DNA from: Heptranchias perlo
Lineage: Eukaryota
Reading direction: 5' to 3'
Length of the DNA stretch: 64,000 bases
Assembly: GCF_035084215.1 (NCBI RefSeq)
Contig: NC_090332.1
Location: 40,734,001-40,798,000 of the forward strand
Position 1 is the first letter of the stretch. Each line of letters opens with the position of its first letter. Below, piece by piece: positions 1 through 59,059 of the stretch. Both the position numbers and the translations under genes were made by a program. A model generated the notes under the pieces. That model saw only the letters and a program-made list of their open reading frames with translations, ran no database searches and was not told the origin of the DNA.

Positions 1-1916
1 GCCTCCTCCCACCCTTCATCTAACCCTATCAGCATATCCTTTTATTCCTTTCTCCCTCATGTGTTTATCTGGCTTCCCCTTAAATGCATCAATGCTAGCC
101 GCTTCAACTACTTGTGGTAGCGAGTTCCACCCTCTAACCCACTCTCTGGATAAAGAAGTTTCCCTGAATTCCCTTTTGGATTTGTTAGTGACTGTCTTAT
201 ATTTACGGCCCCTAGTCCTGATCTCCCCCGCAAGTGGAAACATCTTCTCTACATTTACCCTATCAAACCCTTTCATAATCTTAAAGGCCTCTATCAGGTC
301 ACCCAACAGTTTCTCTTTTCGAAGGAAAAGGGCCCAGCCTGTTCAATCTTTCCTGATAGGGATAACCTCTCAGTTCTGGTATCAGCCTAGTAAATCTTTT
401 TTGCACCTTCTTCAGTGCCTCTATTTCCCTTTTATAATATGGAGACCTGAACTGTTCACAGTACTCCACGCATGGTCTAACCAAGATTCTACAAATGTTT
501 AACATAACTTCCCTGCTTTTCAATTGTATCCCTCTTGAAAAGAACCCCAGTGCTTTGTTGGCTTTTTTTTATGGTCTTATTAACTTGCTTTGCTACTTTT
601 AGTGAGTTGTGTATCTATACCCTCAGATCCCACTGCTCTTCTACTCCATTTAGAGTCTTATTTTCCAAGAATTAAGTGGTCTCCTTATTCTTCCTACCAA
701 AACGTACCACCTCTTACTTATCTATATTGAAATTCATTTGCCAATTACATGCTCATTCTGTAAGTTTATTAATGTCTTCCTGTATTTCGTCGCAGTTCTC
801 CTCAGTATTGACTATGCCCCCAATTTGGTATCGTCCGCAAATTTTGAAATTGTGCTTCCAATTCCCGAGTCCAAATCGTTTACGTAAATAGTGAACAACA
901 GTGGTCCCAGCACCGATCCTTATGGAACAGCACTTCCCACCTTTTGCCAGTTTGAGTAACCAACTTTAACCACTACTCTGTTTTCTGTTTTGTAGCCAGC
1001 TTGCTATCCATTCTGCTGCTTGTCCACTGACTTCACATGCTCTGACCTTAGACATGAGTCCACTATGTGGTACCTTATCGATGGCCTTTTGAAAATCCAA
1101 ATTTATTACATCTAATGCATTACCCTTGTCTACCCTTCCTGTTACTACTTCAAAGACTTCAATAAGGTTGGTCAAGCATGACCCTCCCTTTTGAAATCTG
1201 TGCTGACTATTTTTAATAATATTTTCGGTTTCTAGATGGTTCTCTATTACATCTTTGAGTAAGGAGCCCATTGTCTTTCCTACCGCCGACGTTAAGCTAA
1301 TTGGACTATAGTTCCCTGGACTTGTTCTATCTCTCTTTTTAAATATAGGATTCACATTAGCTGTCCACCAGTCCTCTGGCACTGTTCCCTTTACTAATGA
1401 ATTTTTATATATATGTAATAGTGCCTCTGCTATCTCTTCCCTGACTCCTTTTAACTTGTACCAATGCAATTCATCCAGACCAGGAATTTTATCCTCTCTA
1501 AGATTGATTAGTTCATCAGTTACCTCCCCTCTTTCTATCTTAAATGTCTGTCTTTTTTGATCTCTTCTAATGCCCACCATGTTAATTTCCCTGGTAAATA
1601 CTGAGGCAAAGTAATTATTTAATATTTCTGCCATTTCGCTGTCTTTACCTGTGAGTTTATCTTGTGTATCCTTTAGTGGCCCTATCCTGATTTTTCTTTT
1701 GTTATTTATGTGTCTGTCGAATACTTTACTGTTTCTTTTTATATTCCTTGATATTTTAATTTTGTAGTTTCTCTTTGACTCCTAATTGTTTTTTTTGCTT
1801 CTTTCCTAACGTTTTCGTATTCCCTTTTGTCATCCTCTCCTTTGTTGACTATGTACTTAGCGTATGCCTTTGTCTTTAGTTTAAATTTTGCCCTTGTTTC
1901 TTTATTCATCCACGGC
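1..1916 (-). mobile_element. CR1 LINE, decayed ORF2 (RT and 3' part), running off the window start
   Basis: Minus-strand ORF pieces 16-306, 299-523, 966-1634 and 1739-2041 give CR1 RT motifs (NYSPISLTS, SCLTNLIE, LDFQKAIDKVPH, LVRPCVEYCEQFRSPY, GDLIEAFKIMKG); multiple stops and frameshifts. Confidence 0.9.
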
Positions 1917-2187
1917 CTGTCCCTTAAAACTGATATAGACCTACATTTGTCATCGTTACACCATTTACGGATGTAAAGTGGGCGCAATGATAACCAATTT
2001 AGCAGTGCAGAGGATCCTGCCCGATCTGCCCTGGTGGCCACCTGAAATGAGTGCAGGCCTCATTTCAATATTAAAACCAGGCTCCTGTGCCCATTTCAGA
2101 GCTAGACTCCTAAATTCGTTAGGACTAGTCGGAGCTTGCGCTTTGCAATGATGATGACTGTAGGTCTATATCAGTCTTAAGGGACAG
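1917..2187. repeat. Short element bounded by a 29-bp inverted repeat (MITE-like)
   Basis: ctgtcccttaaaactgatatagacctaca (1917-1945) is the reverse complement of tgtaggtctatatcagtcttaagggacag (2159-2187) with one mismatch. Confidence 0.65.
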
Positions 2188-2559
2188 ACTGTATTGCCAA
2201 GAACCATCTTTTTTGACTTTTTGAATAAAAGATACTTTTTCTGCTTTAAAATTTATTGCAGAATGTTAGATTTTTTGCACTCTTTGATTGAGGTGTTTTT
2301 TAATACTGTGCCACCCCCTCCCATTTGTGATATAGCTTATTTGGAAGTGGACAAGTGGAAACAACCATATGTCCCTTTGACAGCTGCTGAAGTCATTTGC
2401 CTGGCTTCTCCTGAGCCACAAACAACAAGTTGTCTATTACAGGGTAGGAATTTTCCCTCATCATGATGCTACAACTGTTCATGCCACCTGGAATAAAAAG
2501 AGAAGCCTCACAGTCAAATACAAAGGGACCAGGATAGATTAGGAAGGTGGCCTGATGAG

Positions 2560-3200
2560 TGACAAATGGCATTTAATGTGGACAAATGCAAAGTAATAAG
2601 AAATATAAACTAAATGGCTTTAGGTGACAGGACACAATGCAGAAGACGGATCTGGGAGTAATTGTGGAAACCTCATTGACACTCACAGCACAGTAAGAGA
2701 CAGCAGTAATGAAAGCTAACCAGATCTTGGGATATATAGCCAGAGATATAGAATATAAATCCCAGGATGTGATAATGACTGTACAAGATACTGCAACGAC
2801 CACACCTAGAGTACTTTGTTCAATTCTGGCTGCCCTGTTACAGCAAGGGTATGCAAAAAATAGAGGTAGTGCAACAAAAAGCAACCAAACTATACCTGTG
2901 TTAAATCTGACCTATGAGAAGAGGTTTGAGAGCCTGCGATTGCTAACTTTGAAGAAGACCAGCCTCAGATGTGATGTCCAAGTTTTCGATATTCATAATG
3001 GAATAGATGAATTAAACCCAGTGATATGTTTGAGGTTAGAAAAGGACAGTGTACAGCCAGTTCAGTTAACTACTTTATGCAGAAGGTAATAAACATGTAG
3101 AATGTTTTTTCCAGGGAGGCACTGGAGGCAGATAGTGTGGATCAGGGGAAAAATGAAATAGACATTTGAGGGAGTGGGTGATTAAAAGGTATCAATTGTT
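2560..3200 (+). mobile_element. Old CR1 3' fragment
   Basis: Degenerate RT C-terminal motifs (MAFNVDKCKV, KANQILGYIARDIEYKSQDVI, LTYEKRFESLRL). Confidence 0.75.
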
Positions 3201-3988
3201 TGTGGGAGGGGCCAGGTGGACTACACAGTCTTCTTTGGTCCTTTCCTTTATTCCTAACCCTTTAATGGGAAAAAGAGGAAAATATCCTATAACTGTTTAA
3301 ATTCTCCCTAAAAAAAATTGCAGTACGTTTAAATTTGCAACTCGAGCTCTGTACTCCATATATGTTGTATAATCACGATAAGTATATCTTTGTGAACATG
3401 AAAAATGCAAATTTACATTTGCTGCAAAAATAATCAGTTTTACAGTACGTGTGTAATAAATCAGCTGTGAAAGATTTATCTCTCTGTGCAGTGCCAAAAT
3501 CTCTTAATTGCATTTTGTAAAATCAATCAATCCAGTTCAAATTTTAGAAATGGTATTTATTCAACAATTCTGAAATGTATTCAAAAAGAAACAATTTGCC
3601 AATTTGTGCCAAGTTGTCTTAGTTATACAGCAAGTAAACATACCCCATTGTAATGAAGAAATTCAATAGAGTGCCCAAGTTCAATTCACAAAAAGTGATT
3701 TAAAAATAACTAGTTTTTGATTTATTGTTTACTGCACTCTGCAGCAAAGTAATTATCAATGCAGAGAAATGGCTGATATTTTTAATTTGTTGATTTCATA
3801 ATGGTGGATATAGCTGATAATGGTTTAGTCACTGTCCTGTTACAGAAAGAAGGCATCCCTCAGGATGTACAGACATTCCTTGTTTTTTTATCGTTTAGTC
3901 CGAGATTCATTTTGTGAGGTTTTTATTGAATAGGAAATTCAATAAGAAAATGTCATATAAATCCAGTGGTTCTTAAACCTGGACAAAT

Positions 3989-8864: not shown

Positions 8865-10841
8865 ATGGAGCGGTGCAGGGGCAAGGCTGCTCTAAGATTC
8901 AGAGATGCCTCACTTGAGGTGCTGCTGGCCGGGGTGAGGAGGAGGAGGAGGAGGGAACTACTTTACCCGGCTGACAGGAGGAAGTGCTCTGCTTCTGCTA
9001 AGAAGGCCTGGCTCGAGGTGGTAGAGGAGGTCACCAGCTGGAGCAACATACCCCGCACTTGGGTCCAGTGGAGAAAGTGTTTCAATGACCTAACTAGGTC
9101 AGCAGAAGTGAGTACACTTATTGATTCTCCTGCATTCTGTGTTGCACATCATTCCCCCCCCACTCCCCGACATCATTCTGCACTGCCAAGACTATTTCAT
9201 CACATCACTCCTCACACCCACTTAAGGCTCATCCTCAACTTACCTGCCCTTCCTGAGCACATCCTCACCTCCCCATTTGTGATTCTATCACTACCACTCA
9301 CCCCAATCCTGATCCAATGTGATGTCTCTGTCTGATACTCACCCTCTGATGCATCTCTTTCACGGCCTGCCTCACCCAAAGCAGAGGCTGACCACTTCAC
9401 CCTCACTCACTCACTCACACTCTTAGTACTTTCTTCCCTTGTAGGAGAAGAGAGCACAAAATGCATGCGAGAGGGCGAAGACTGGAGGGAGGCCACAACA
9501 AATAGTGGTCCTCACAGAGGTGAAGGAGGCCCTGGCGATCAACCACACCCTCGAGAGCCTATCTGTCGGGAACACTGAGACTGGCACCCCACAAACGTCT
9601 GGTGACACAACTTTAACATTCATCACACACAATATGAATTGATGTTAACAGTGATTGGCATGATGAACACCTCAGTATGCTCATCGCAACATGACACATC
9701 AGTGATGATGCTTAATATTGCCATCTGTTCTCTGAAAGGCCCTTCAACGACCACAGTGACGGCAGAGGACGATTCCTCAGTGAAGCTCCATGCCTCTGAG
9801 GGCGCACCGTCACATCTTAGTGAGCCGTCCACCAGCACAGATACTCATACCTCGGTGGGTCCAAGTAGTCAGTTAGTTGGGTTGGCACCTGGTGAGTCAC
9901 CACACACAAGTGAGCACAAGCAGACACTGGTGGCAGGGGAAGCTGTGGTGAGTCCGCGTCGGTGGGCGCACTCCTCACCAGGCCCTGCTCTGCTGGACGT
10001 AGATGCTGAACCTCGAGGGTCGTCCTTTAGAAGGAGAATGTTCGAGGAACAGCAGCACATTTGCGAAGTACTGGAACAGGTGCCACGTGCACTCTCCACA
10101 ATAGCAGAGAGGATAGAGGAGTCCAACTCCTACATTAGTGGAATGGTGGCACAAGTACAGGGGGGAATCTCTGAGATATTGTCACAGGGACGTGAGCAAC
10201 TGCCTGATAGTGTTGTACATAACTGCGGAAATGTCTGAGATAGTGTCGCAGCTAACTGCGGAAATGTCTGAGATAGTGTCGCAGGTAACTGCGGAAATGT
10301 CTGAGATAGTGTCGCAGATAAGTGCAGGAATGTCTGCGATGGAGAGAAGGCTAGCCTCCATTGAGCTTCAAACATGGCTCACAAATGAGTCCATTCAGGC
10401 CCTGACAACGGCCGTTCGGACTCACGGTGAACAACATTCTGCCGCCTTAAACAGACAGATTGAAACCTTACAACTGGGCTTCCAAGGCATCATACATGTC
10501 CTCCAAACTGTTCTCCAGCAGGGTGGTAGGAGTGATGTGGACCAGGTCCAGGAGAGGGATGATGGCAAAAGGGATCATGGAAGTGGGGACTCCACTCAAA
10601 GCGTGCCCACGATTCACCCGTTGCCCCCCTCTCACTCGCAATGGCTGAGTCTGCCCCTGCACAGGTGCAGGTGGAGCAGTCTTTAGCAGGGCCCTCAAGG
10701 GCTTCAAAACTCAGAGGGCGTAGGCCGGAAGCATCTAAGCAGTCCAGGCATGGACATGAGCAACCCGCCACTACCTCTGCTGCAGCCACAGGGGATGCAC
10801 CATGTAGATGTAGTAGGATGAGAAAGGCTAAGGTTTTGTGA
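8865..10841 (+). pseudogene. Harbinger Myb/SANT-like DNA-binding protein gene, 3 exons (8865-9107, 9445-9601, 9739-10841)
   Basis: MERCRGKAALRFRDASLEVLLAGV...KKAWLEV...RTWVQWRKCFNDL, then EKRAQNACERAKTGG; GT/AG sites at 9108, 9443-44, 9602 and 9737-38 with consistent phases (0, then 1); frameshifts in exon 3. Confidence 0.8.
10221..10340 (+). repeat. 33-bp coding tandem repeat (three copies plus a partial one)
   Basis: aactgcggaaatgtctgagatagtgtcgcag(ct/gt/at) at 10221, 10254 and 10287; encodes TAEMSEIVSQ[LVI]. Confidence 0.9.
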
Positions 10842-12390: not shown

Positions 12391-13207
12391 CCTGATGGTG
12401 TCAGTTGGTAAATATGTGTAAACAGAAGAATTCTGAGTGGAAACCAAGAATTTTCAATCTAAGCACAAAGATCTCCCAGCCAAAAGTTTGTTTGAGAGGA
12501 CTGAGTGCCCTGCTGCAATAACTCAGCTTTTATCCCCATCTGTCAAACAGTGATTTAAATGTCCAAATGGCTGCCGGCTGCAACCCGCCGACTTTCCTAT
12601 ACCATGTTTCACACAGCATGGGAAACACGTTCAGGCAGCATTGAAATCGCTTGCCTTCATAGTTAATTGCATTTATGGATTTTTTTAACTACTTTAAATA
12701 GTTGAATTGCTGCTTTAAATATCGGCACGCGCACCCAGATGGCTCTGGGTTGTGCGCGTTCTTTGGGGTGTTGGAGCCAGGATTTCTGCCCGCTCCTCAA
12801 AAATTTGCCCCCCTGCCCCCTATTCCACTCAGGAAAATAAATAATAGAATTTTTGTAAATTGAGCATAAAGAAATGCAGCAAAATCAATAGTCTTTCAAA
12901 GACGGGGCAGAAGTAGGGTTAAGCCAGTTGGACAGAAGCAACAGTGGGGTCCAGAAGCAAGTTGAACAAGAAGAAAGGAAGGGGGAAGAAAGTGCGGGGC
13001 CAGGCTGGTTGACAGTGCAGAAGCGGGGCTCGGGCAGGAAGAGGAAGATAGTAGAGTAGATCCCAAAGGGGACTTAAAGCAGCTAGGATAGTGCAAGGTT
13101 GGCTAACAGTATAAGGCACGAAGAATGGAATGGGGCAGAATTTCCAGGGGACCTAAAGTGCTACAGCACCCTACCATCGGCAGGAAGGTGTAATTACAGT
13201 GTGACAA

Positions 13208-14203
13208 GTTCCTCAGGGCAGTGTCCTAGGCCCAACCATCTTCAGCTGCTTCATCAATGACCTTCTCTCCATCATAAGGTCAGAATTAGGGATGTTCTCT
13301 GATGATTGAAGAGTGTTCAGTTCCATTCGCAACCCCTCAGATAATGAAGCAGTCCGAGCCCACATGCAGCAAGACCTGGACAACATCCAGGCTTGGGCTG
13401 ATTAGTGGCAAGTAACATTCGTGCCAGACAAGTGCCAGGCAATGACCATCTCCAACAAGAGAGAATCTAACCACCTGCCCTTGACATTCAACGGCATTAC
13501 CATCGCTGAATCCCCCACCATCAACATCGTGGGGTCACCATTGACCAGAAACTTAACTGGACCAGCCACATAAATACTGTGGCTACAAGAGCAGGTCAGA
13601 GGCTGGGTATTCTATGGCGAGTGACTCACCTCCTGACTCCCCAAAGCCTTTCCACCATCTACAAGGCACAAATCAAGAGTGTGATGGAATATTCTCCACT
13701 TGCCTGGATGAGTGCAGCTCCAACAACACTCAAGAAGCTCGACACCATCCAGGACAAAGCAGCCCGCTTGATTGGCACCCCTTCCACCACCCTAAACATT
13801 CACTCCCTTCACCACCGACGCACCGTGGCTGCAGTGTGTACCATCCACAGGATGCACTGCAGCAACTCGCCAAGGCTTCTTCGACAGCACCTCCCAAACC
13901 CGTGACCTCTACCACCTAGAAGGACAAGGGCAGCAGGCACATGGGAACAACAACACCTGCACGTTCCCCTCCAAGCCACACACCATCCCGACTTGGAAAT
14001 ATATCGCCATTCCTTCATCGTCGCTGGGTCAAAATACTGGAACTCCCTACCTAACAGGACTATGGGAGAACCTTCACCACACGGACTGTCGTGGTTCAAG
14101 AAGGCGGCTCACCACCACCTTCTCAAGGGCAATTAGGGATGGGCAATAAATGCTGGCCTTGCCAGTGACACCCACATCCCATGAACGAATAATTTAAAAA
14201 AAA
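13208..14203 (+). mobile_element. LINE-B (CR1-group non-LTR element), 5'-truncated 3' fragment
   Basis: VPQGSVLGP...RT C-terminus; 3' tail gggcaataaatgctggccttgcc...catcccatgaacgaat plus A-rich end, shared with the other copies. Confidence 0.9.
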
Positions 14204-28560: not shown

Positions 28561-30895
28561 GGACCTCATCCTCACCAATCCACCTGTCGCAAATGCATCT
28601 GTCCATGACAGTATTGGTAGGAGTGACCACCGCACAGTCCTCGTGGAGATGAAATCCCGTCTTCGCACTGAGGACACCATCCAACGTGTTGTGTGGCACT
28701 ACCACCGTGCTAAATGGGATAGATTCAGAACAGATCTAGCAGCTCAAAACTGGGCATCCATGAGGCGCTGTGGGCCATCAGCAGCAGCAGAATTGTATTC
28801 CAGCACAATCTGTAACCTCATGGCCCGGCATATTCCTCACTCTACCATTACCAACAAGCCAGGGGATCAACCCTGGTTCAATGAGGAGTGTAGAAGAGCA
28901 TGCCAGGAGCAGCACCAGGCGTACCTAAAAATGAGGTGCCAACCTGGTGAAGCTACAACTCAGGACTACATGCATGCTAACAGCGGAAGCAACATGCTAT
29001 AGACAGAGCTAAGCGATTCCACAACCAACGGATCAGATCAAAGCTCTGCAGTCCTGCCACATCCAGTCGTGAATGGTGGTGGACAATTAAACAACTAACG
29101 GGAGGAGGAGGCTCTGCAAACATCCCCATTCTCAATGATGGCGGAGTCCAGCACGTGAGTGCAAAAGACAAGGCTGAAGCGTTTGCAACCATCTTCAGCC
29201 AGAAGTGCCGAGTGGATAATCCATCTCAGCCTCCTCCCGATATCCCCACCATCACGGAAGCCAGTCTTCGGCCAATTCGATTCACTCCACGTGATATCAA
29301 GAAACGGCTGAGTGCACTGGATACAGCAAAGGCTATGGGCCCTGACAACATCCCAGCTGTCGTGCTGAAGACTTGTGCTCCAGAACTCGCTGCGCCTCTA
29401 GCCAAGCTGTTCCAGTACAGCTACAACACTGGCATCCACCCGACAATGTGGAAAATTGCCCAGGTATGTCCTGTCCACAAAAAGCAGGACAAATCCAATC
29501 CGGCCAATTACCGCCCCATCAGTCTACTCTCAATCATCAGCAAAGTGATGGAAGGTGTCGTCGACAGTGCTATCAAGCGGCACTTACTCACCAATAACCT
29601 GCTCACTGATGCTCAGTTTGGGTTCCGCCAGGACCACTCGGCTCCAGACCTCATTACAGCCTTGGTCCAAACATGGACAAAAGAGCTGAATTCCAGAGGT
29701 GAGGTGAGAGTGACTGCCCTTGACATCAAGGCAGCATTTGACCGAGTGTGGCACCAAGGAGCCCTTGTAAAATTGAAGTCAATGGGAATCAGGGGGAAAA
29801 CTCTCCAGTGGCTGGAGTCATACCTAGCACAAAGGAAGATGGTAGTGGTTGTTGGAGGCCAATCATCTCAGCCCCAGGGCATTGCTACAGGAGTTCCTCA
29901 GGGCAGTGTCCTAGGCCCAACCATCTTCAGCTGCTTCATCAATGACCTTCCCTCCATCATAAGGTCAGAAATGGGGATGTTCGCTGATGACTGCACAGTG
30001 TTCAGTTCCATTCGCAACCCCTCAGATAATGAAGCAGTCCGAGCCTGCATACAGCAAGACCTGGACAACATCCAGGCTTGGGCTGATAAGTGGCAAGTAA
30101 CATTCGTGCCAGACAAGTGCCAGGCAATGACCATCTCCAACAAGAGAGAGTCTAACCACCTCCCCTTGACATTCAACGGCATTACCATCGCCGAATCCCC
30201 CACCATCAACATCCTGGGGGTCACCATTGACCAGAAACTTAACTGGACCAGCCATATAAATACTGTGGCTACGAGAACAGGTCAGAGGCTGGGTATTCTG
30301 CGGCGAGTGACTCACCTCCTGACTCCCCAAGCCTTTTCACCATCTACAAGGCACAAGTCAGGAGTGTGATGGAATACTCTCCACTTGCCTGGATGAGTGC
30401 AGCTCCAACAACACTCAAGAAGCTCGACACCATCCAAGATAAAGCAGCCCGCTTGATTGGCACCCCATCCACCACCCTAAACATTCACTCCCTTCACCAC
30501 CGGCGCACTGTGGCTGCAGTGTGCACCATCCACAGGATGCACTGCAGCAACTCGCCAAGGCTTCTTCGACAGCACCTCCCAAACCCGCGACCTCTACCAC
30601 CTAGAAGGACAAGGGCAGCAGGCGCATGGGAACAACACCACCTGCACGTTCCCCTCCAAGTCACACACCATCCCGACTTGGAAATATATCGCCGTTCCTT
30701 CATTGTCGCTGGGTCAAAATCCTGGAACTCCCTTCCTAACAGCACTGTGGGAGAACCGTCACCACACGGACTGCAGCGGTTCAAGAAGGCGGCTCACCAC
30801 CACCTTCTCGAGGGCAATTAGGGATGGGCAATAAATGCCGGCCTTGCCAGCGACGCCCACATCCCGTGAACGAATAATAAAAAAAATTTTAAAAA
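28561..30895 (+). mobile_element. LINE-B, young 5'-truncated copy with near-intact RT (two frameshifts)
   Basis: ORFs 28643-29002, 29155-30369 (YRPISLLS, ALDIKAAFDRVWH, GVPQGSVLGP, FADD) and 30366-30821; A-rich tail; interrupts the CR1-B endonuclease. Confidence 0.95.
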
Positions 30896-45339: not shown

Positions 45340-47914
45340 TTTTTTTTATTCGTTCATGGGATGTGGGCGTCGCTGGCGAGGCCAGCATTTATTGCCCATC
45401 CCTAATTGCCCTTGAGAAGGTGGTGGTGAGCTGCTTTCTTGAACCGCTGCTGTCCGTGTGGTGAAGGTTCTCCCACAGTGCTGTTAGGAAGAAAGTTCCA
45501 GGATTTTGACCCAGCAACGATGAAGGAACGGCGATATAGTTCCAAGTTGGAATGGTGTGTGACTTGGAGGGGAACATGCAGGTGGTGTTGTTCCCATGTG
45601 CCTGCTGCCCTTGTCCTTCTAGGTGGTAGAGGTCGCGGGTTTCGGAGGTGCTGTCGAAGAAGCCTTGGCAAGTTGCTGCAGTGCATCCTGTGGATGGTAC
45701 ACACTGCAGCCACTGTGTGCCGCTGGTGAAGGGAGTGAATGTTTAGGGTGGTGGATGGGGTGCCAATCAAGCGGGCTGCTTTGTCCTGGATGGTGTCAAG
45801 CTTCTTGGGTGTTGTTGGAGCTGCACTCATCCAGGCAAGTGGAGAGTATTCCATCACACTCCTGAGTTGTGCCTTGTAGATGAGGGAAAGGCTTTGGGGA
45901 GTCAGGAGGTGAGCCACTCGCCACAGAATACCCAGCCTCTGACCTGCTCTTGTAGCCACAGTGTTTATATGGTTGGTCCAGTTAAGTTTCTGGTCAATGG
46001 TGACCCCCAAGATGTTGATGGTGGGGGATTCGGCGATGGTAATGCCGTTGAATGTCAAGGGGAGGTGGTTAGACTCTCTCTTGTTGGAGATGGTCATTGC
46101 CTGGCACTTGTCTGGCACGAATGTTACTTGCCACTTATCAGCCCAAGCCTGGATGTTGTCCAGGTCTTGCTGCATGCGGGCTCGGACGGCTTCATTTTTT
46201 GAGGAGTTGCGAATGGAACTGAACACTGTGCAATCGTCAGCGAATATCCCCATTTCTGACCTTATGATGGAGGGAAGGTCATTGATGAAGCAGCTGAAGA
46301 TGGTTGGGCCTAGGACACTGCCCTGAGGAACTCCTGCAACAATGTCCAGGGGCTGAGATGATTGGCCTTCAACAACCACTACCATCTTCCTTTGTGCTAG
46401 GTATGACTCCAGCCACTGGAGAGTTTTCCCCTCTTTCCCATTGACTTCAATTTTACAAGGGCTCCTTGGTGCCACACTCGGTCAAATGTCACTCTCACCT
46501 CACCTCTTGAATTCAGCTCTTTTGTCCATGTTTGGACCAAGGCTGTAATGAGGTCTGGAGCCGAGTGGTCCTGGCGGAACCCAAACTGAGCATCAGTGAA
46601 CAGGTTATTGGTGAGTAAGTGCCGCTTGCTAGCACTGTCGACGACAACTTCCATCACTTTGCTGATGATTGAGAGTAGACTGATGGGGCGGTAATTGGCC
46701 GGGTTGGATTTGTCCCGCTTTTTGTGGACAGGACATACCTGGGCAATTTTCCACATTGTCGGGTAGATGCCAGTGTTGTAGCTGTACTGGAACAGTTTGG
46801 CTAAAGGCGCAGCTAGTTCTGGAGCACAAGGCTTCAGCACTACAGCTGGGATGTTGTCGGGGCCCATAGCCTTTGCTGTATCCAGTGCACTCAACCGTTT
46901 CTTGATATCACGTGGAGTGAATCGAATTGGCTGAAGACTGGCTTCTGTGATCGTGGGGATAGTGGGAGGAGGCCGAGATGGATCATCCACTTGGCACTTC
47001 TGGCTGAAGATGGTTGCAAACGCTTCAGCCTTGTCTTTTGCACTCACGTGCTGGACCTGCCAGCATTGAGGATGGGGATGTTTACAGAGCCTCCTCCTCC
47101 CGTTAGTTGTTTAATTGTCCACCACCATTCACGACTGGATGTGGCAGGACTGCAGAGCTTTGATCTGATCCGTTGGTTATGGAATCGCTTAGTTCTGTCT
47201 ATAACATGTTGCTTCCGCTGTTTAGCATGCATGTTGTCCTGAGTTGTAGCTTTACCAGGTTGGCACCTCATTTTTAGGTACGCCTGGTGCTGCTCCTGGC
47301 ATGCTTTTCTACACTCCTCATTGAACCAGGGTTGATCCCTTGGCTTGTTGGTAATGGCAGAGTGAGGAATATGCCGGGCCATAAGGCTACAGATTGTGCT
47401 CGAATACAATTCTCCTGCTGCTGATGGCCCACAGCACCTAATGGATGCCCAATTTTGAGCTGCTTGATCTGTTCTGAATCTATCCCATTTAGCACGGTGG
47501 TAGTGCCACACAACATGTTAGATGGTATCCTCAGTGCGATGTTGAGACTTTGTCTCCACAAGGACTGTGCAGTGGTCACTCCTACCAATACTGTCATGGA
47601 CAGATGCATTTGCATCAGGTAGATTGGTGAGGACAAGGTCAAGAAAGTTTTTCCCTCGTGTTGGATCGCTCACCACCTGCCGCAGCCCCAGTCTGGCAGC
47701 TTTGTCCTTCGGGACTCGGCCAGCTCGGTTAGTAGTGGTGCTACCGAGCCACTCTTGGTGATGGACGTTGAAGTCCCCCACCCAGGGTACATTCTGTGCC
47801 CTTGCTACCCTCAGTGCTTCCTCCAAGTGGTGTTCAACATGGAGGAGGACTGATTCATCAGCTAAGGGAGGGTGTTAGGTGGTAATCAGCAGGAGGTTTC
47901 CTTGCCCATGTTTG
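45340..47914 (-). mobile_element. LINE-B, 3' (sense) part of a full-length copy with 5' inversion
   Basis: A-tail (T-run on +) at about 45340; RT and EN ORF pieces 45402-46475, 46397-47047, 47044-47511 and 47518-47826 (GDFNVHH, GRSDH). Confidence 0.95.
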
Positions 47915-47980
47915 GGTACGGTAGCATAGTGGTTATGTTACTGGACTAGTAATCCGGAGTCATGAGTTCAAATCCTGCCA
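47915..47980 (+). promoter_or_regulatory. tRNA-Thr(AGT)-like internal Pol III promoter (box A and box B)
   Basis: Box A TAGCATAGTGG 47922-47932; anticodon arm CTGGA-CTAGTAA-TCCGG 47941-47957 (anticodon AGT); box B GTTCAAATC 47966-47974. Confidence 0.8.
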
Positions 47981-48650
47981 TGGTAGCTGGGGAATTTAAG
48001 TTCAATTAATTAAATTTTTAAAATCTGGAATTAAAATACTAATATCATTAATGGTGGCCATGAAACTACCGGATTGTCGTAAAAACCCATCTGGTTCACT
48101 GATGTCCTTTAGGGAAAGAAACCTGCTGTCCTTACCTGGTCTGGCCTATATGTGACTCCAGACCCACAGCAATGTGGTTGATTCTTAATTGCCCTCTGAA
48201 ATGGCCTAGCAAGCCACTCAATTGTAAAATCTCGCTAAAAAAGGTCATAATAAGAATAAAATCGGACAGACCACCCGGCATCGGACCACTAGGCACCGGA
48301 CACGATAAAGGCAAACCAAGCCCAGTTGACCCTGCAAAGTCCTCCTCACTAACATCTGGGGACTTTTGCCAAAATTGGGAGAGCTGTCCCACAGACTAGT
48401 CAAGCAACAGCCTGACATAGCCATACTCACAGAATCATACCTTTCAGCCATCGTCCCAGACTCTTCCATCACCATCCCTGGGTATGTCCTGTCTCACTGG
48501 CAGGACAGACCCACCAGAGGTGGCGGTACAGTGATATACAGTCAAGAGGGAGTGGCCCTGGGAGTCCTCAACATTGACTCTGGACCCCATGAAATCTCAT
48601 GTCATCAGGTCAAACATGGGCAAGGAAACTTCCTGCTGATTACCACCTAC
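47915..48650 (+). mobile_element. LINE-B inverted 5' part: tRNA-like head, short leader, endonuclease N-terminus
   Basis: tRNA-like head 47915-47980, then KVLLTNIWGLLPKLGEL...PDIAILTESYL...RGGGTVIY from about 48330; ends in a 39-bp segment that is also present at the start of the minus-strand part. Confidence 0.88.
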
Positions 48651-51132: not shown

Positions 51133-52680
<1,548 letters not shown>

Positions 52681-53084
52681 CTCATGCAGGTGAGAAAAGG
52701 TCCCAATAAGCTAAGCACCCATATAAAATGTGTGCTGCAGAAGATGCTTCTTCTCTTCAGTTGGGTCCTTACTCTTAAAGGTACATCACTGTTTGGTGTA
52801 TCCATTCGTAGGTCACTGTTTCTCTGCTATACTGTATATCTTGGGGAAAGGAAAATAAGGAAATTTATTGAAGTCATCCTGGTAGCTTCTTAAAACCATA
52901 CTGCAGCTATTACCTGTGTTGTTTATCCAGTGAATGTTATTATTGTACTCATTTGCAAGCAGCTATGGGTATCCCATGGGCATACCTCTATTTGTAAATT
53001 ATGGGGGTGAATCAAAACAAGTATGCCTGACAAATGCATTTATATCTCATGCACTCCATTGAAAATAATTTTTATGCTGCCACC

Positions 53085-54420: not shown

Positions 54421-55036
54421 TCAGTCAGAAAGAGTCATCAGGCAGGGTCCAATTGACAAAACCTTAAATTAAATGCCGTATAGCTCCAATACATAACAGT
54501 CATACTTTTGTTGACCCTGCAAAGTCCTCCTCACTAACATCTGGGGACTTGTACCAAAATTGGGAGAGCTGTCCCATAGACTAGTCAAGCAACAGCCTGA
54601 CATACCCATACTCACAGAATCATACCTTTCAGCCAATGTCCCAGACTCTTCCATCACCATCCCTGGGTATGTCCTGTCCCACCAGCAGGACAGACCCACC
54701 AGAGGTGGTGGTACAGTGATATACAATCAGGAGGGAGTGGCCCTGGGAGTCCTCAACATTGACTCCAATGAAATCTCATGGCATCAGGTCAACCATGGGC
54801 AAGGAAACCTCCTACTGATTACCACATACCGCCCTCCCTCAGCTGATGAATCAGTCCTCCTCCATGTTGAGCTCACCACTTGGAGGAAGCACTAGAGGGA
54901 GCAAGGGCACAGAATGTACTCTGGGTGGGGGACTTCAACGTCCATCACCAAGAGTGGCTCGGTAGCTCCACTGGATCAGCCACATAAATACTGTGGCTAC
55001 AAGAGCAGGTCAGAGGCTGGGTTTTATGCGGCGAGT

Positions 55037-58000
55037 TGGGAACCTGAGCAGGGAGAGAGAGGAAAGCGTAACAGGAAGGGACAGAAGGTATGGAGTAATA
55101 GGTAAAGTGTTAAAAAAGGAAAAAGCAGAAACTAAGCGTCACAAAACAGATTTGAAAGTTCTTTATCTGAATGCACGTAGCATTCGTAACAAAATGGACG
55201 AGTTAACGGCACAAATAACTACGTATGGGTATGATCTTGTGGCCATTACAGAAACATGGCTGCAGGGTGACAACGACTGGGAATTAAATATGCCAGGGTA
55301 TTTAACAATCAGGAAGGACAGGCAGGAAGGAAGGGGAGGTGGGGTGGCTATGTTAATAAAGGAAGGAATCACTGTAATACAGATAAATGATATTGGGACA
55401 AAGCATCAAGATAATGAAACAGTTTGGGTGGAGATAAGGAATAATAAGGGGAAAAAAACATTAGTGGGCGTAGTATATAGGCCTCCTAATAGTTGCAACT
55501 CTGCTGGAAGAAGTATTAATCAGGAAATAGTCGGGGCATGTAATAAGGGAACAGCTATAATTATGGGGGATTTTAATTATCATATTAACTGGACAAATCA
55601 AATTGGGCAGAGCAGCCTTGAGGACGAGTTCATTGAGTGCATCAGGGATGGATTTCTTGAGCAGTATGTAACTGATCCTACTAGGGGGCAGGCAACCTTG
55701 GACCTGGTCCTGTGTAATGAGTCAGGATTAATTAATAATGTCCTAGTTAAGGATCCCCTTGGAACGAGAGACCACAACATGGTTGAATTCCATATCCAAT
55801 TAGAGGGTGAGAAGGTTGATTCTCAAACAAGAGTACTGAGCTTGAATAAAGGAGACTATGATGGTATGAGAGCGGAATTGATTAAAGTGGACTGGGAAAA
55901 TAGATTAAAGGGTAAGACGGTACATGAGCAGTGGTGTTCATTTAGGGAGTTATTTTACAACTTTCAAAATAAATATATTCCACTGAGGAAAAAAGGGTGT
56001 AAAAGAAATGACAGCCATCCGTGGCTAAGTAAAGAAATCAAGGATAGTATCCGACTAAAAACAAGGACATATAAGGTAGCCAAACTTAGTGGGAGGATAG
56101 AAGATTGGGAATTCTTCAAAAGACAACAAAAAGTAACTAAAGGATTGATTAAGAAAGGGAAGTTAGATTATGAAAAGAAATTAGCAAAAAATATAAAAAC
56201 AGATAGCAAGAGTTTCTATAGTTATATAAAAAGAAAAAGGGTGGCTAAGGCAAACGTAGGTCCCTTAGAGGATGAGACCGGGAAATTAATGGTGGGAAAC
56301 ATGGAGATGGCAAAAATGCTGAACAAATATTTTGTTTCAGTCTTTACAGTAGAGGACACTAAGAATATCCCAACACTGGACAAACAGGGGACTCGACGGG
56401 GGGAGGAGCTAAATACGATTAAAATCACTCAGGAGATGGTACTCAGTAAAATAATGGGACTCAAAGCGGATAAATCCCCTGGACCTGATGGCTTCCATCC
56501 TAGGGTCTTGAGGGAAGTGGCAGTAGGGATTGTGGATGCTTTGGTGATAGTTTTCCAAAATTCCCTGGACTCAGGAGAGGTCCCGGCAGATTGGAAAACT
56601 GCTAATGTAACACCGTTATTTAAAAAGGGTAGTAGGCAGAAGGCTGGAAATTATAGGCCAGTTAGCTTAACATCTGTGGTGGGTAAAATTTTGGAGTCTA
56701 TTATTAAGGAGACAGTAACGGAACATTTAGATAAGCATAATTTAATAGGACAAAGTCAGCATGGCTTTATGAAGGGGAAGTCATGTCTGACAAATTTGCT
56801 TGAGTTCTTTGAGGATATAACGTACAGGGTGGATAAAGGGGAACCAGTGGACATAGTGTATTTAGACTTCCAGAAGGCATTCGACAAGGTGCCACATAAA
56901 AGATTATTACTTAAGATAAAAAATCACGGGATTGGGGGTAACATTCTGGCATGGGTGGAGGATTGGTTATCGAACAGGAAGCAGAGAGTTGGGATAAATG
57001 GTTCATTTTCGGACTGGCAACCAGTAACCAGTGGTGTTCCACAGGGGTCGGTGCTGGGTCCCCAACTCTTTACAATCTATATTAACGATTTGGAGGAGGG
57101 GACCGAGTGCAACATATCAAAATTTGCAGATGATACAAAGATGGGAGGGAAAGTAGAGAGTGAGGAGGACATAAAAAACCTGCAGGGGGATATAGACAGG
57201 CTGGGTGAGTGGGCGGAGATTTGGCAGATGCAATATAATATTGGAAAATGTGAGGTTATGCACTTTGGCAGGAAAAATCAGAGAGCAAGTTATTTTCTTA
57301 ATGGCGAGAGACTGGAAAGTACTGCAGTACAAAGGGATCTGGGGGTCCGAGTGCAAGAAAATCAAAAAGTTGGTATACAGGTGCAGCAGGTGATCAAGAA
57401 AGCCAACGGAATGTTGGCTTTTATTGCTCGGGGGATAGAATATAAAAACAGGGAGGTATTGCTGCAGTTATATAGGGTATTGGTGAGACCGCACCTGGAA
57501 TACTGCATACAGTTTTGGTCTCCATACTTAAGAAAAGACATACTTGCTCTCGAGGCAGTACAAAGAAGGTTCACTCAGTTAATCCCGGGGATGAGGGGGC
57601 GGACATATGAGGAGAGGTTGAGTAGATTGGGACTCTACTCAATGGAGTTCAGAAGAATGAGAGGCGATCTTATTGAAACATATAAGATTGTGAAGGGGCT
57701 TGATCGGGTGGATGCAGTAAGGATGTTCCCAAAGATGGGTGAAACTAGAACGAGGGGGCATAATCTTAGAATAAGGGGCTGCTCTTTCAAAACTGAGATG
57801 AGGAGAAACTTCTTCACTCAGAGGGTGGTAGGTCTGTGGAATTTGCTGCCCCAGGAAGCTGTGGAAGCTACATCATTAGATAAATTTAAAACAGAAATAG
57901 ACAGTTTCCTAGAAGTAAAGGGAATTAGGGGTTATGGGGAGCGGGCAGGAAATTGGACATGAAGCTGAGTTCGGATCGGTCAATGCCCTGTGGGTGGCGG

Positions 58001-58163: not shown

Positions 58164-59059
58164 GAGTGACTCACCTCCTGACTCCCGAAAGCCTTTCCAC
58201 CATCTACAAGGCACAAGTCGGGAGTGTGATGGAGTACGCTCCACTTGCCTGGATGAGTGCAGCTCCAACAACACTCAAGAAGCTTGACACCATCCAGGAC
58301 AAAGCAGCCCGCTTAATTAGCAGCCCATCCACCACCCTAAACATTCACTCCCTTCACTACCGGTGCACCGTGGCTGCAGAGTGTACCATCCACAGGATGC
58401 ACTGCCGCAACTCACCAAGGCTTCTTCGACAGCACCTCCCAAACCCACCACCTCTACCACCTAGAAGGACAAGAGCAGCAGGCACACGGGAACAACACCA
58501 CCTGCACGTTCCCCTCCAAGTCACACACCATCCCGACTTGGAAATATATCGCCGTTCCTTCATCGTGGCTGGGTCAAAATCCTGGAACTCCCCACCTAAC
58601 AGCACTGTGGGAGTACCTTCGCCACACGGACTGCAGCGGTTTAAGAAGGCGGCTCACCACCACCTTCTCGTGGCAATTAGGGATGGGCAATAAATGGATG
58701 GCCTCGCCAGCGATGCCCACGTCCCATGAACGAATATAAAAAAATAATTGTCCGTGTACCTCCTTGTGCTGGATCAGTAAATGGTCCATCAAGTGAAGTT
58801 GACACAGATTGTTATGGTGACTAACTGTTCCTATGTGCTCATGGACACATCTATATTAAACTGAGTGAGGTCGCTCTTGCCATTGCCTTGCTGCTGGGCT
58901 CTCCCTCAGCATGTCTAGAGATCTGTAGCATGGCATCCGTGACGGTTCCAAGAGTTTTCATTACTAAATACAACTCCCTTATTCCAGTGGCAGAATTGCA
59001 CACCCAATTATTCATGGGTCAAACTATACTGTCGCCCCCCCACCCCCCGGCCAAAGCTG

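Follow-up and report, generated by a model that had tools for sequence, protein, structure and literature searches.

The window analyzed here, a 64,000-nucleotide stretch of the Heptranchias perlo genome (contig NC_090332.1, positions 40,734,001 to 40,798,000, forward strand), contains a LINE that appears to open with a tRNA-like module carrying a Pol III promoter. In the textbook division, LINEs are coding elements transcribed by Pol II and SINEs are noncoding elements transcribed by Pol III. The locus raises the questions of whether the head is part of the LINE, which polymerase transcribes the element, and where translation of its single frame begins.

The window copy is a dead, partly inverted member of the abundant shark-type Zenon LINE. 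Positions 47915 to 48650 (+) correspond to nt 1 to 775 of a natural family copy that is 3333 nt long, and positions 47914 to 45340 (-) correspond to nt 736 to 3333 of the same copy. Because the two segments together span the natural copy with ∼40 nt duplicated, the insertion is complete but 5' inverted, a shape that matches the one expected of twin priming. The inversion placed the RNA 5' end, with its tRNA-like head, at an internal joint. Stops and frameshifts occur in both segments, including two stops private to the 5' ORF part of this copy (48306 and 48327). A search for an empty site with the flanks of the insertion gave no usable match. The features of the locus are as follows:

47915..47985 (+): tRNA-derived head that forms the element's 5' end, located at the inversion joint and lacking ∼20 nt of the duplicated anticodon arm of the family
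47922..47932 (+): Pol III box A-like motif; by eye, the same motif is in 6/6 published elasmobranch consensus 5' ends
47941-47957 (+): anticodon-like arm with loop AGT, read from the window sequence
47964..47974, core 47966-47974 (+): Pol III box B-like motif, read from the sequence and, by eye, from the published consensus 5' ends
47986..48227 (+): conserved noncoding leader, in which no Deu, Meta, or UCON3 domain is recognizable by eye
48196..48221 (+): predicted hairpin whose 7-nt loop (48206-48212) resembles an anticodon loop; the structure is a prediction and gave no covariation signal
48201 (+): in-frame ATG inside the predicted hairpin, with a TAG directly after it at 48207 (window sequence)
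48234..48237 (+): invariant GCTA, a candidate region for the start of translation; its GCT forms the third codon of the frame and complements the hairpin loop
48228..48650 (+): 5' part of the single ORF, a basic Arg/Thr-rich extension (to 48338) followed by the APE endonuclease N terminus
45340..47914 (-): 3' part of the same insertion (remaining endonuclease and reverse transcriptase), frameshifted and dead; it ends with a stop (45404-45402), a ∼55-nt 3' UTR, and an A-tail (45347-45340)
48611..48649 (+) and 47914-47876 (-): 39-nt stretch found on both sides of the inversion, which fits twin priming
54510..54972 (+): second family fragment, 5' truncated, starting inside the N-terminal extension and without the head

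Box A, the anticodon-like arm, and the box B core lie where the preliminary description of this locus had placed them, and the endonuclease N terminus (VLLTNIWGL) begins at 48339 with neither an A-tail nor an ORF1 between it and the head, as had also been described. The leader of ∼350 nt reported there is present, except that its last ∼110 nt (48228-48338) are in fact the start of the open frame, here broken by the two private stops. The observation that no obvious in-frame ATG precedes the endonuclease holds only in effect: the ATG at 48201 is in frame but useless, as it is cut off by the TAG at 48207 and a TAA at 48225. Elsewhere, the window contains four further 5'-truncated Zenon copies (13207-14201, 28562-30883, 51406-52689, and 58164-58743) and a 33-nt tandem repeat within another large repeated element (10142-10370). 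A different LINE family at 54966-57962 (+), with an intact 998-codon frame, a protein ∼25% identical, and normal T-run content, served as a control.

The junction between head and endonuclease recurs throughout the genome. A 201-nt junction query against the 3.25-Gb genome of the same species retrieved 3435 candidates, and all of those scored (40/40) matched end to end at 95 to 100%. For sampling independent of the head, the endonuclease protein served as the query; of 36,748 candidates, 150 were scored, and 25 of the 150 scored matches had an open frame of at least 966 codons with no stop in the match. Among 20 intact-frame copies fetched on the basis of the endonuclease alone, 18 carried the head sequence, 10 had an identical first base despite unrelated flanks, and 2 were truncated within the first codons. 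None of the 20 showed an alternative 5' end, a different or conventional 5' UTR, or an upstream ORF1. A blind sample of 940 kb, drawn as 94 pieces of 10 kb each from round coordinates, in which the Zenon family accounted for ∼6.2% of the DNA, contained 55 frame-bearing fragments, 10 tail-only fragments, 10 short head-plus-tail copies, and 3 head-only copies; the head was present on every copy extending past the frame start (5/5). An older lineage (71 to 87% identical; 1428 candidates) displayed the same joint in 30/30 fetched loci, which were selected by the junction query. Contigs from four sequencing runs of four organisms span head and frame, and one of these outside runs yielded 819 contigs with loose ends just 5' of the first base of the head. 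No viral contig matched the head pattern, and none of the sequencing runs listed as containing the element is recorded as RNA.

Taken together, these data confirm that the head-endonuclease junction is real, family-wide, and conserved across elasmobranchs. The same joint at thousands of loci places it beyond chance, and the preliminary reading of an autonomous, single-frame LINE of ∼3.3 kb with a tRNA-derived 5' head is borne out by the headed intact-frame copies. That a SINE merely inserted beside a truncated LINE at this locus has next to no probability: a short head-plus-tail form does exist in the genome, which is all that is left in its favor, and the joint is shared by old and young lineages and by the consensus sequences of five other species. 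The recurrent junction and the headed intact copies thus rule out a one-off event.

Judging from the near-identity (by eye) of its 5' 400 nt to published rows, this is the Zenon LINE already described from elasmobranchs, a member of the CR1 group. Pfam analysis of the frame located the endonuclease at 43-243 and RVT_1 at 529-776; as in Zenon elements, there is a single frame with APE endonuclease and reverse transcriptase and no ORF1. A poly-A tail was found in 20/20 intact copies, and a crude search revealed no target site duplication of >5 nt in the same number of copies. The survey part of Stuart et al. 2026 (PMC13343379) describes Zenon in elasmobranchs, coelacanth, and hagfish, all with a poly-A tail and without ORF1. 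In its consensus rows, the elasmobranch Zenons (CarCar, RhiTyp, ScyCan, SquAca, and HypSab) match the present head and leader nearly letter for letter over the 5' 400 nt, and the consensus lengths of 5/6 are 3244 to 3314 nt, likewise without ORF1 and with poly-A (PMC13343379). All six elasmobranch rows, of which the first 400 nt each were compared, open with the same head and leader and with the A and B boxes. The hagfish and coelacanth rows, in contrast, have no such head within those rows and contain TTTT within the first 400 nt (by eye; PMC13343379). The family and its missing ORF1 were therefore already known from these rows and the accompanying survey. The absence of ORF1, which the preliminary description had treated as a surprise, is the rule among the Zenon elements surveyed in the consulted part of PMC13343379, and the distant relatives examined here are likewise single-frame.

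The anatomy of the 5' end appears to be a different matter. In the main text of PMC13343379, as accessed, "tRNA" and "start codon" have no matches, and "tRNA" has none in its supplement. The longest ORF2 given there for these families is 739 to 747 aa, close to a first-Met reading of the present frame; thus, the AUG-less N terminus apparently went unremarked. Searches of the mostly open-access literature retrieved no account of a shark LINE with a tRNA head or with Pol III transcription. The promoter and translation anatomy of this known family therefore is apparently unremarked in the searchable literature.

Purifying selection acts on the frame, the 35 codons that precede the endonuclease included. 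Over the frame, the 20 intact copies share 97.3 to 99.1% identity with one another; as near-clones, they count as about one observation. Between the young and old lineages, dN/dS was 0.23 over 927 codons (column majorities as the yardstick, with 2 stop-read codons dropped), and it was 0.26 over codons 3-37, a value from small counts (5 synonymous and 4 nonsynonymous changes). The 2A motif DxExNPGP, described for single-frame CR1 elements in the part of PMC3894237 consulted, is absent from the N-terminal 45 codons. Four distant metagenomic relatives (L215 to L218; 32 to 34% identical) gave no Rfam or tRNA match, and their endonuclease is closely preceded by an ATG. Given these relatives, head gain and AUG loss look like derived features that may have arisen together in elasmobranchs. 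We note that three of the relatives share a GC-rich 5' UTR motif block (L216:1-330, L217:290-520, and L218:230-470), perhaps a structured RNA or ribozyme, which had no Rfam match. Public shark gene models (P0002, P0010, P0013, and P0019) contain pieces of the frame of this LINE and are probably annotation artifacts.

The head itself is tRNA-like without being a canonical tRNA. ARAGORN called no tRNA over the window, and against Rfam RF00005 the window head scored 17.1 bits and the head of another copy scored 21.6, at a cutoff of 29. Run on other natural heads, ARAGORN identified two as tRNA-Thr(AGT) and one old head as tRNA-Ile(AAT). In the Rfam alignments, the acceptor and T stems are poorly paired and the promoter boxes are kept; in most young copies, the anticodon arm is duplicated. 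The description of the module as tRNA-Thr(AGT)-like is right as to its loop, which reads AGT. The assignment to Thr is insecure: in local alignments to an incomplete panel of tRNAs from the same genome, scores were 40 to 60 for tRNA-Thr(TGT) and 40 to 57 for tRNA-Gln(CTG), and the parent may be either Thr or Gln. A MetaSINE, Deu, or UCON3 head was considered and dismissed, as a by-eye comparison with printed alignments of these three gave no match. The element shares with SINE2 elements a tRNA-derived 5' head with boxes A and B (Rfam score below the cutoff), but it is not short and noncoding: it is 3.33 kb long and has a 973-codon frame under selection. Only its short derivatives are short and noncoding. 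Separately, the genome contains long tandem arrays of tRNA-Cys genes (∼2.36-kb period) and tRNA-Gln genes (∼3.1-kb period) on G000:C23 and G000:C38.

Short head-plus-tail derivatives, of which the preliminary description had proposed the LINE as parent, were found both blindly and by motif. In the blind sample, 10/10 short copies break within ∼40 nt of the frame start and resume variably near the frame end. Thirty loci picked by the old-type border motif were mostly short forms with differing junctions, while four continue into the frame, and head-to-tail joints were present in all four outside runs. Among 37 short forms (BLAST coordinates, loci mostly pattern selected), 31 distinct junction pairs were counted, which leaves a single amplified SINE family unsupported. 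The short copies look like repeated internal deletions of the headed LINE. A lepidopteran Zenon behaves similarly in the account of PMC6740152, as this single-frame element repeatedly yields short 5'-plus-3' derivatives with variable breakpoints. Its derivative Persaeus, as described in the same pages, lacks both homology to tRNA and a Pol III promoter, whereas the short forms here carry both boxes and thus look like true SINEs. Other observations on old copies include frequent large internal deletions in varied places, not only at the head border, in full-length-type copies (L244 to L273), and A-tails often interrupted by a short T-run (A..TTT..A) in L041, L043, L045, L046, and many old short copies.

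Where translation of the frame begins is constrained by the frame itself. It spans 973 codons from stop to stop, and in 16/20 copies the first Met occurs at codon 250 or later, past the endonuclease; in the remaining 4/20, the Mets are private or come from the flank. Across lineages that differ in length, the 35 codons preceding the endonuclease stay open and keep their frame, and the distance from the GCT to the catalytic Asn is 39 or 40 codons, with 5/6 measurable old copies in frame. Because these 35 codons are kept in frame with a dN/dS of 0.26, translation likely begins at or near codon 3 or 4, and a non-AUG start is, on this reading of the copies, highly probable. The upstream in-frame sequence varies by lineage: young copies have a TAA immediately preceding the frame, old copies have a TAG nine codons upstream, and the published whale shark row has neither. 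An ACG at codon 4 is present in 16/19 of the youngest copies and is not a general start, as other lineages have AAA or ACA there. A frameshift from the overlapping +1 frame was also rejected, since its upstream ATG is often ACG in old copies and the out-of-frame ATG of other species is lost here: at ∼48256-48258 (+), in the +1 frame, the rows of other sharks and the stingray have an ATG that opens a short overlapping frame, where this genome has ATA.

The GCTA is invariant and lies 9 to 10 nt 3' of the hairpin with the complementary 7-nt loop. Its GCT is in frame in the three lineages studied here and in 4/6 published rows; it is out of frame in two spiny dogfish rows, which may reflect A-run errors. 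The chance of a 4-mer match in a 6-position window is ∼0.02, for a test chosen after the match was seen. Pairing of the loop with GCU would involve three pairs plus one U-A. A seeming extra loop pair in old copies is explained by CpG decay (TG in 37, CA in ∼25, and CG in ∼28 of the first 100 rows). RNAalifold and pair counts over 38 decayed copies gave no covariation signal in the leader (not above shuffles, 111 of 500), a weak test because dead copies decay neutrally. By eye, two leader pairs change on both sides between species in the published rows: a leader helix pair goes from A-U to G-U to G-C, and a hairpin pair is G-C versus A-U, with most sharks A-C. The 3' 155 nt of the leader diverge by 6.5% between lineages, below synonymous sites (dS of 0.146). 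Folding of the leader is not unusually stable (z of -0.74), and no Rfam IRES family matched at an E value of ≤10. CTAG sites, one of them in the loop, are multiallelic among copies (alignment positions 329, 412, 522, 2214-15, and 2361-62; L039 numbering from the first head base), and T before A is variable in 5.7% of cases versus 1.9% for other T. This suggests a CTAG-specific mutation process in this genome, and generally unstable CTAG sites explain the variability of loop base 329 better than a trace of RNA modification does.

The predicted arrangement resembles, in the parts of PMC4132737, PMC10275262, and PMC12221177 consulted, type 6 IRESs, which combine a non-AUG start, an anticodon-like last hairpin, a short variable linker, and a complementary triplet, and which most often start at GCU and, in type 6f, at ACA. 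Type 6 IRESs pair 5 bases (IAPV needs at least 4), whereas the element has 3 to 4 Watson-Crick pairs, and unlike them it has no recognizable PKII or PKIII motifs. A dicistrovirus-type pseudoknot is therefore a doubtful model. In the section consulted, Luke et al. 2013 (PMC3894237) raised a type 6-like IRES in LINEs as a possibility only.

The polymerase question turns on the boxes and on T-runs. Boxes A and B are kept in the published consensus sequences of sharks and stingray, while the intervening sequence and spacing vary (by eye). The sense strand lacks TTTT in 16/20 intact copies, compared to 4.5 ± 2.0 expected from base shuffles. Runs of three or more T number 5 to 6, versus 12.9 to 13.6 after synonymous shuffles (P ≤ 0.002 in 4/4 copies tested). 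Runs of A, C, and G are at the expected level, and the depletion of T-runs is confined to the sense strand; other long LINE frames in the same genome are undepleted (37/36.9, 36/36.4, 45/44, and 30/32.3). The T4 count alone (0 versus ∼2) is not significant (P of 0.05 to 0.11 with synonymous shuffles and 0.17 to 0.24 with a second null). Phe makes up 2.0 to 2.2% of the protein, compared to 2.8 to 5.0% in 11 relatives. The metagenomic relative L215 (374-2239), which has an ATG start and no visible tRNA head, is also T depleted (T4, 2 versus 7.2; T3, 17 versus 26.3), and L217 is mildly so; the 5' end of L215 may be incomplete. An A/T-rich linker ∼110 to 135 nt in contains T4-5 in 4/10 old copies, with a column majority of T5, which could stop Pol III if it was present in the parents. 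A G precedes the head at position -1 in 14/17 full-length copies and could be a copied cap; the published Zenon consensus ends begin with GGG (PMC13343379, consensus rows). LINEs are taken to be Pol II transcribed and SINEs Pol III transcribed in the part of PMC5786205 consulted. On the strength of the boxes and the T-runs, Pol III transcription of the element is nonetheless somewhat favored.

The best explanation of the whole, to which we assign a probability of roughly 0.6, would be a self-copying, headed LINE that is transcribed by Pol III and translated from a non-AUG codon. TFIIIC would bind boxes A and B of the head, and Pol III would cross the whole element, as the lack of internal TTTT would allow, and would terminate where the flanking DNA supplies its first T-run. 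Ribosomes would be recruited to the uncapped RNA through the 3' half of the leader, which is conserved, the protein would bind the 3' tail, and target-primed reverse transcription would insert the new copy. Template jumps of the reverse transcriptase, leaving the tail for the head/ORF border, would yield the short SINE-like copies. To our knowledge, translated Pol III RNAs of 3.3 kb are very rare.

A possible but less probable alternative is that a captured SINE 5' end marks the RNA start while Pol II, from a promoter inside the leader or by host read-through, makes a capped RNA on which ribosomes reinitiate after the two-codon uORF AUG-GCC-UAG. The AUG of this uORF has a strong context and is in frame at the 10-nt spacer, the extra G at -1 and the nonsignificant T4 test fit this account, and unconventional reinitiation is known for LINE-1, SART1, and caliciviruses (PMC5972666, in the part consulted). 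However, the leader of the copy examined contains nine AUGs, which would divert cap-dependent scanning, and the uORF AUG is GTG in the old lineage and out of frame in the whale shark consensus as published. The kept A and B boxes and the T-specific, strand-specific depletion also remain unexplained if Pol II transcribes the element. Less probable again, indeed improbable, is that the Pol III product is limited to a short or leaky RNA of the head, from which the SINE-like copies are fed, or that the tRNA-like head is a processing signal trimming a host transcript to a fixed 5' end. The narrow head/ORF border zone in which the short forms break (10/10 in the blind sample), as if from a discrete ∼350-nt RNA, the 5' end at the tRNA +1/-1 position, and the T4-5 of old linkers are consistent with this, and there is precedent in the self-cleaving ribozymes that fix 5' ends in R2 and RTE elements (PMC5786205, in the part consulted). 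Yet the acceptor and T stems are poorly paired while the promoter boxes are kept, the T-run depletion runs through the whole frame, and young copies have no terminator at the breakpoint zone.

Among known systems, RTE-1_DAn and related elements also form an autonomous LINE family with tRNA-like sequence but belong to the RTE clade, unlike Zenon (Kojima 2018, PMC5786205, in the part consulted). SacSINE1 and CmiSINE of cartilaginous fish, in the portion of PMC5499810 consulted, consist of a body between a tRNA head that contains A and B boxes and a tail derived from a LINE. They differ in having Deu or CORE domains and L2 tails and in being noncoding, whereas the present element has no Deu domain (by eye) and has a working frame. 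The boldest version of our interpretation, which we consider quite unlikely as a whole, is that the element may have been a Pol III gene for the entire history of sharks and rays, with a 3.3-kb uncapped, U-tract-purged RNA, a dicistrovirus-like, tRNA-mimicking IRES (loop AGC with the in-frame GCU), and SINEs shed repeatedly by deletion of the frame.

The element makes two questions testable at once, namely, whether a multikilobase Pol III RNA can serve as a natural mRNA and how a LINE enzyme is translated without an AUG. AUG-based annotation would overlook the endonuclease and undercount intact copies. The short derivatives indicate that an internal deletion can turn a LINE into a SINE in a single step, without the separate gain of a tRNA head.
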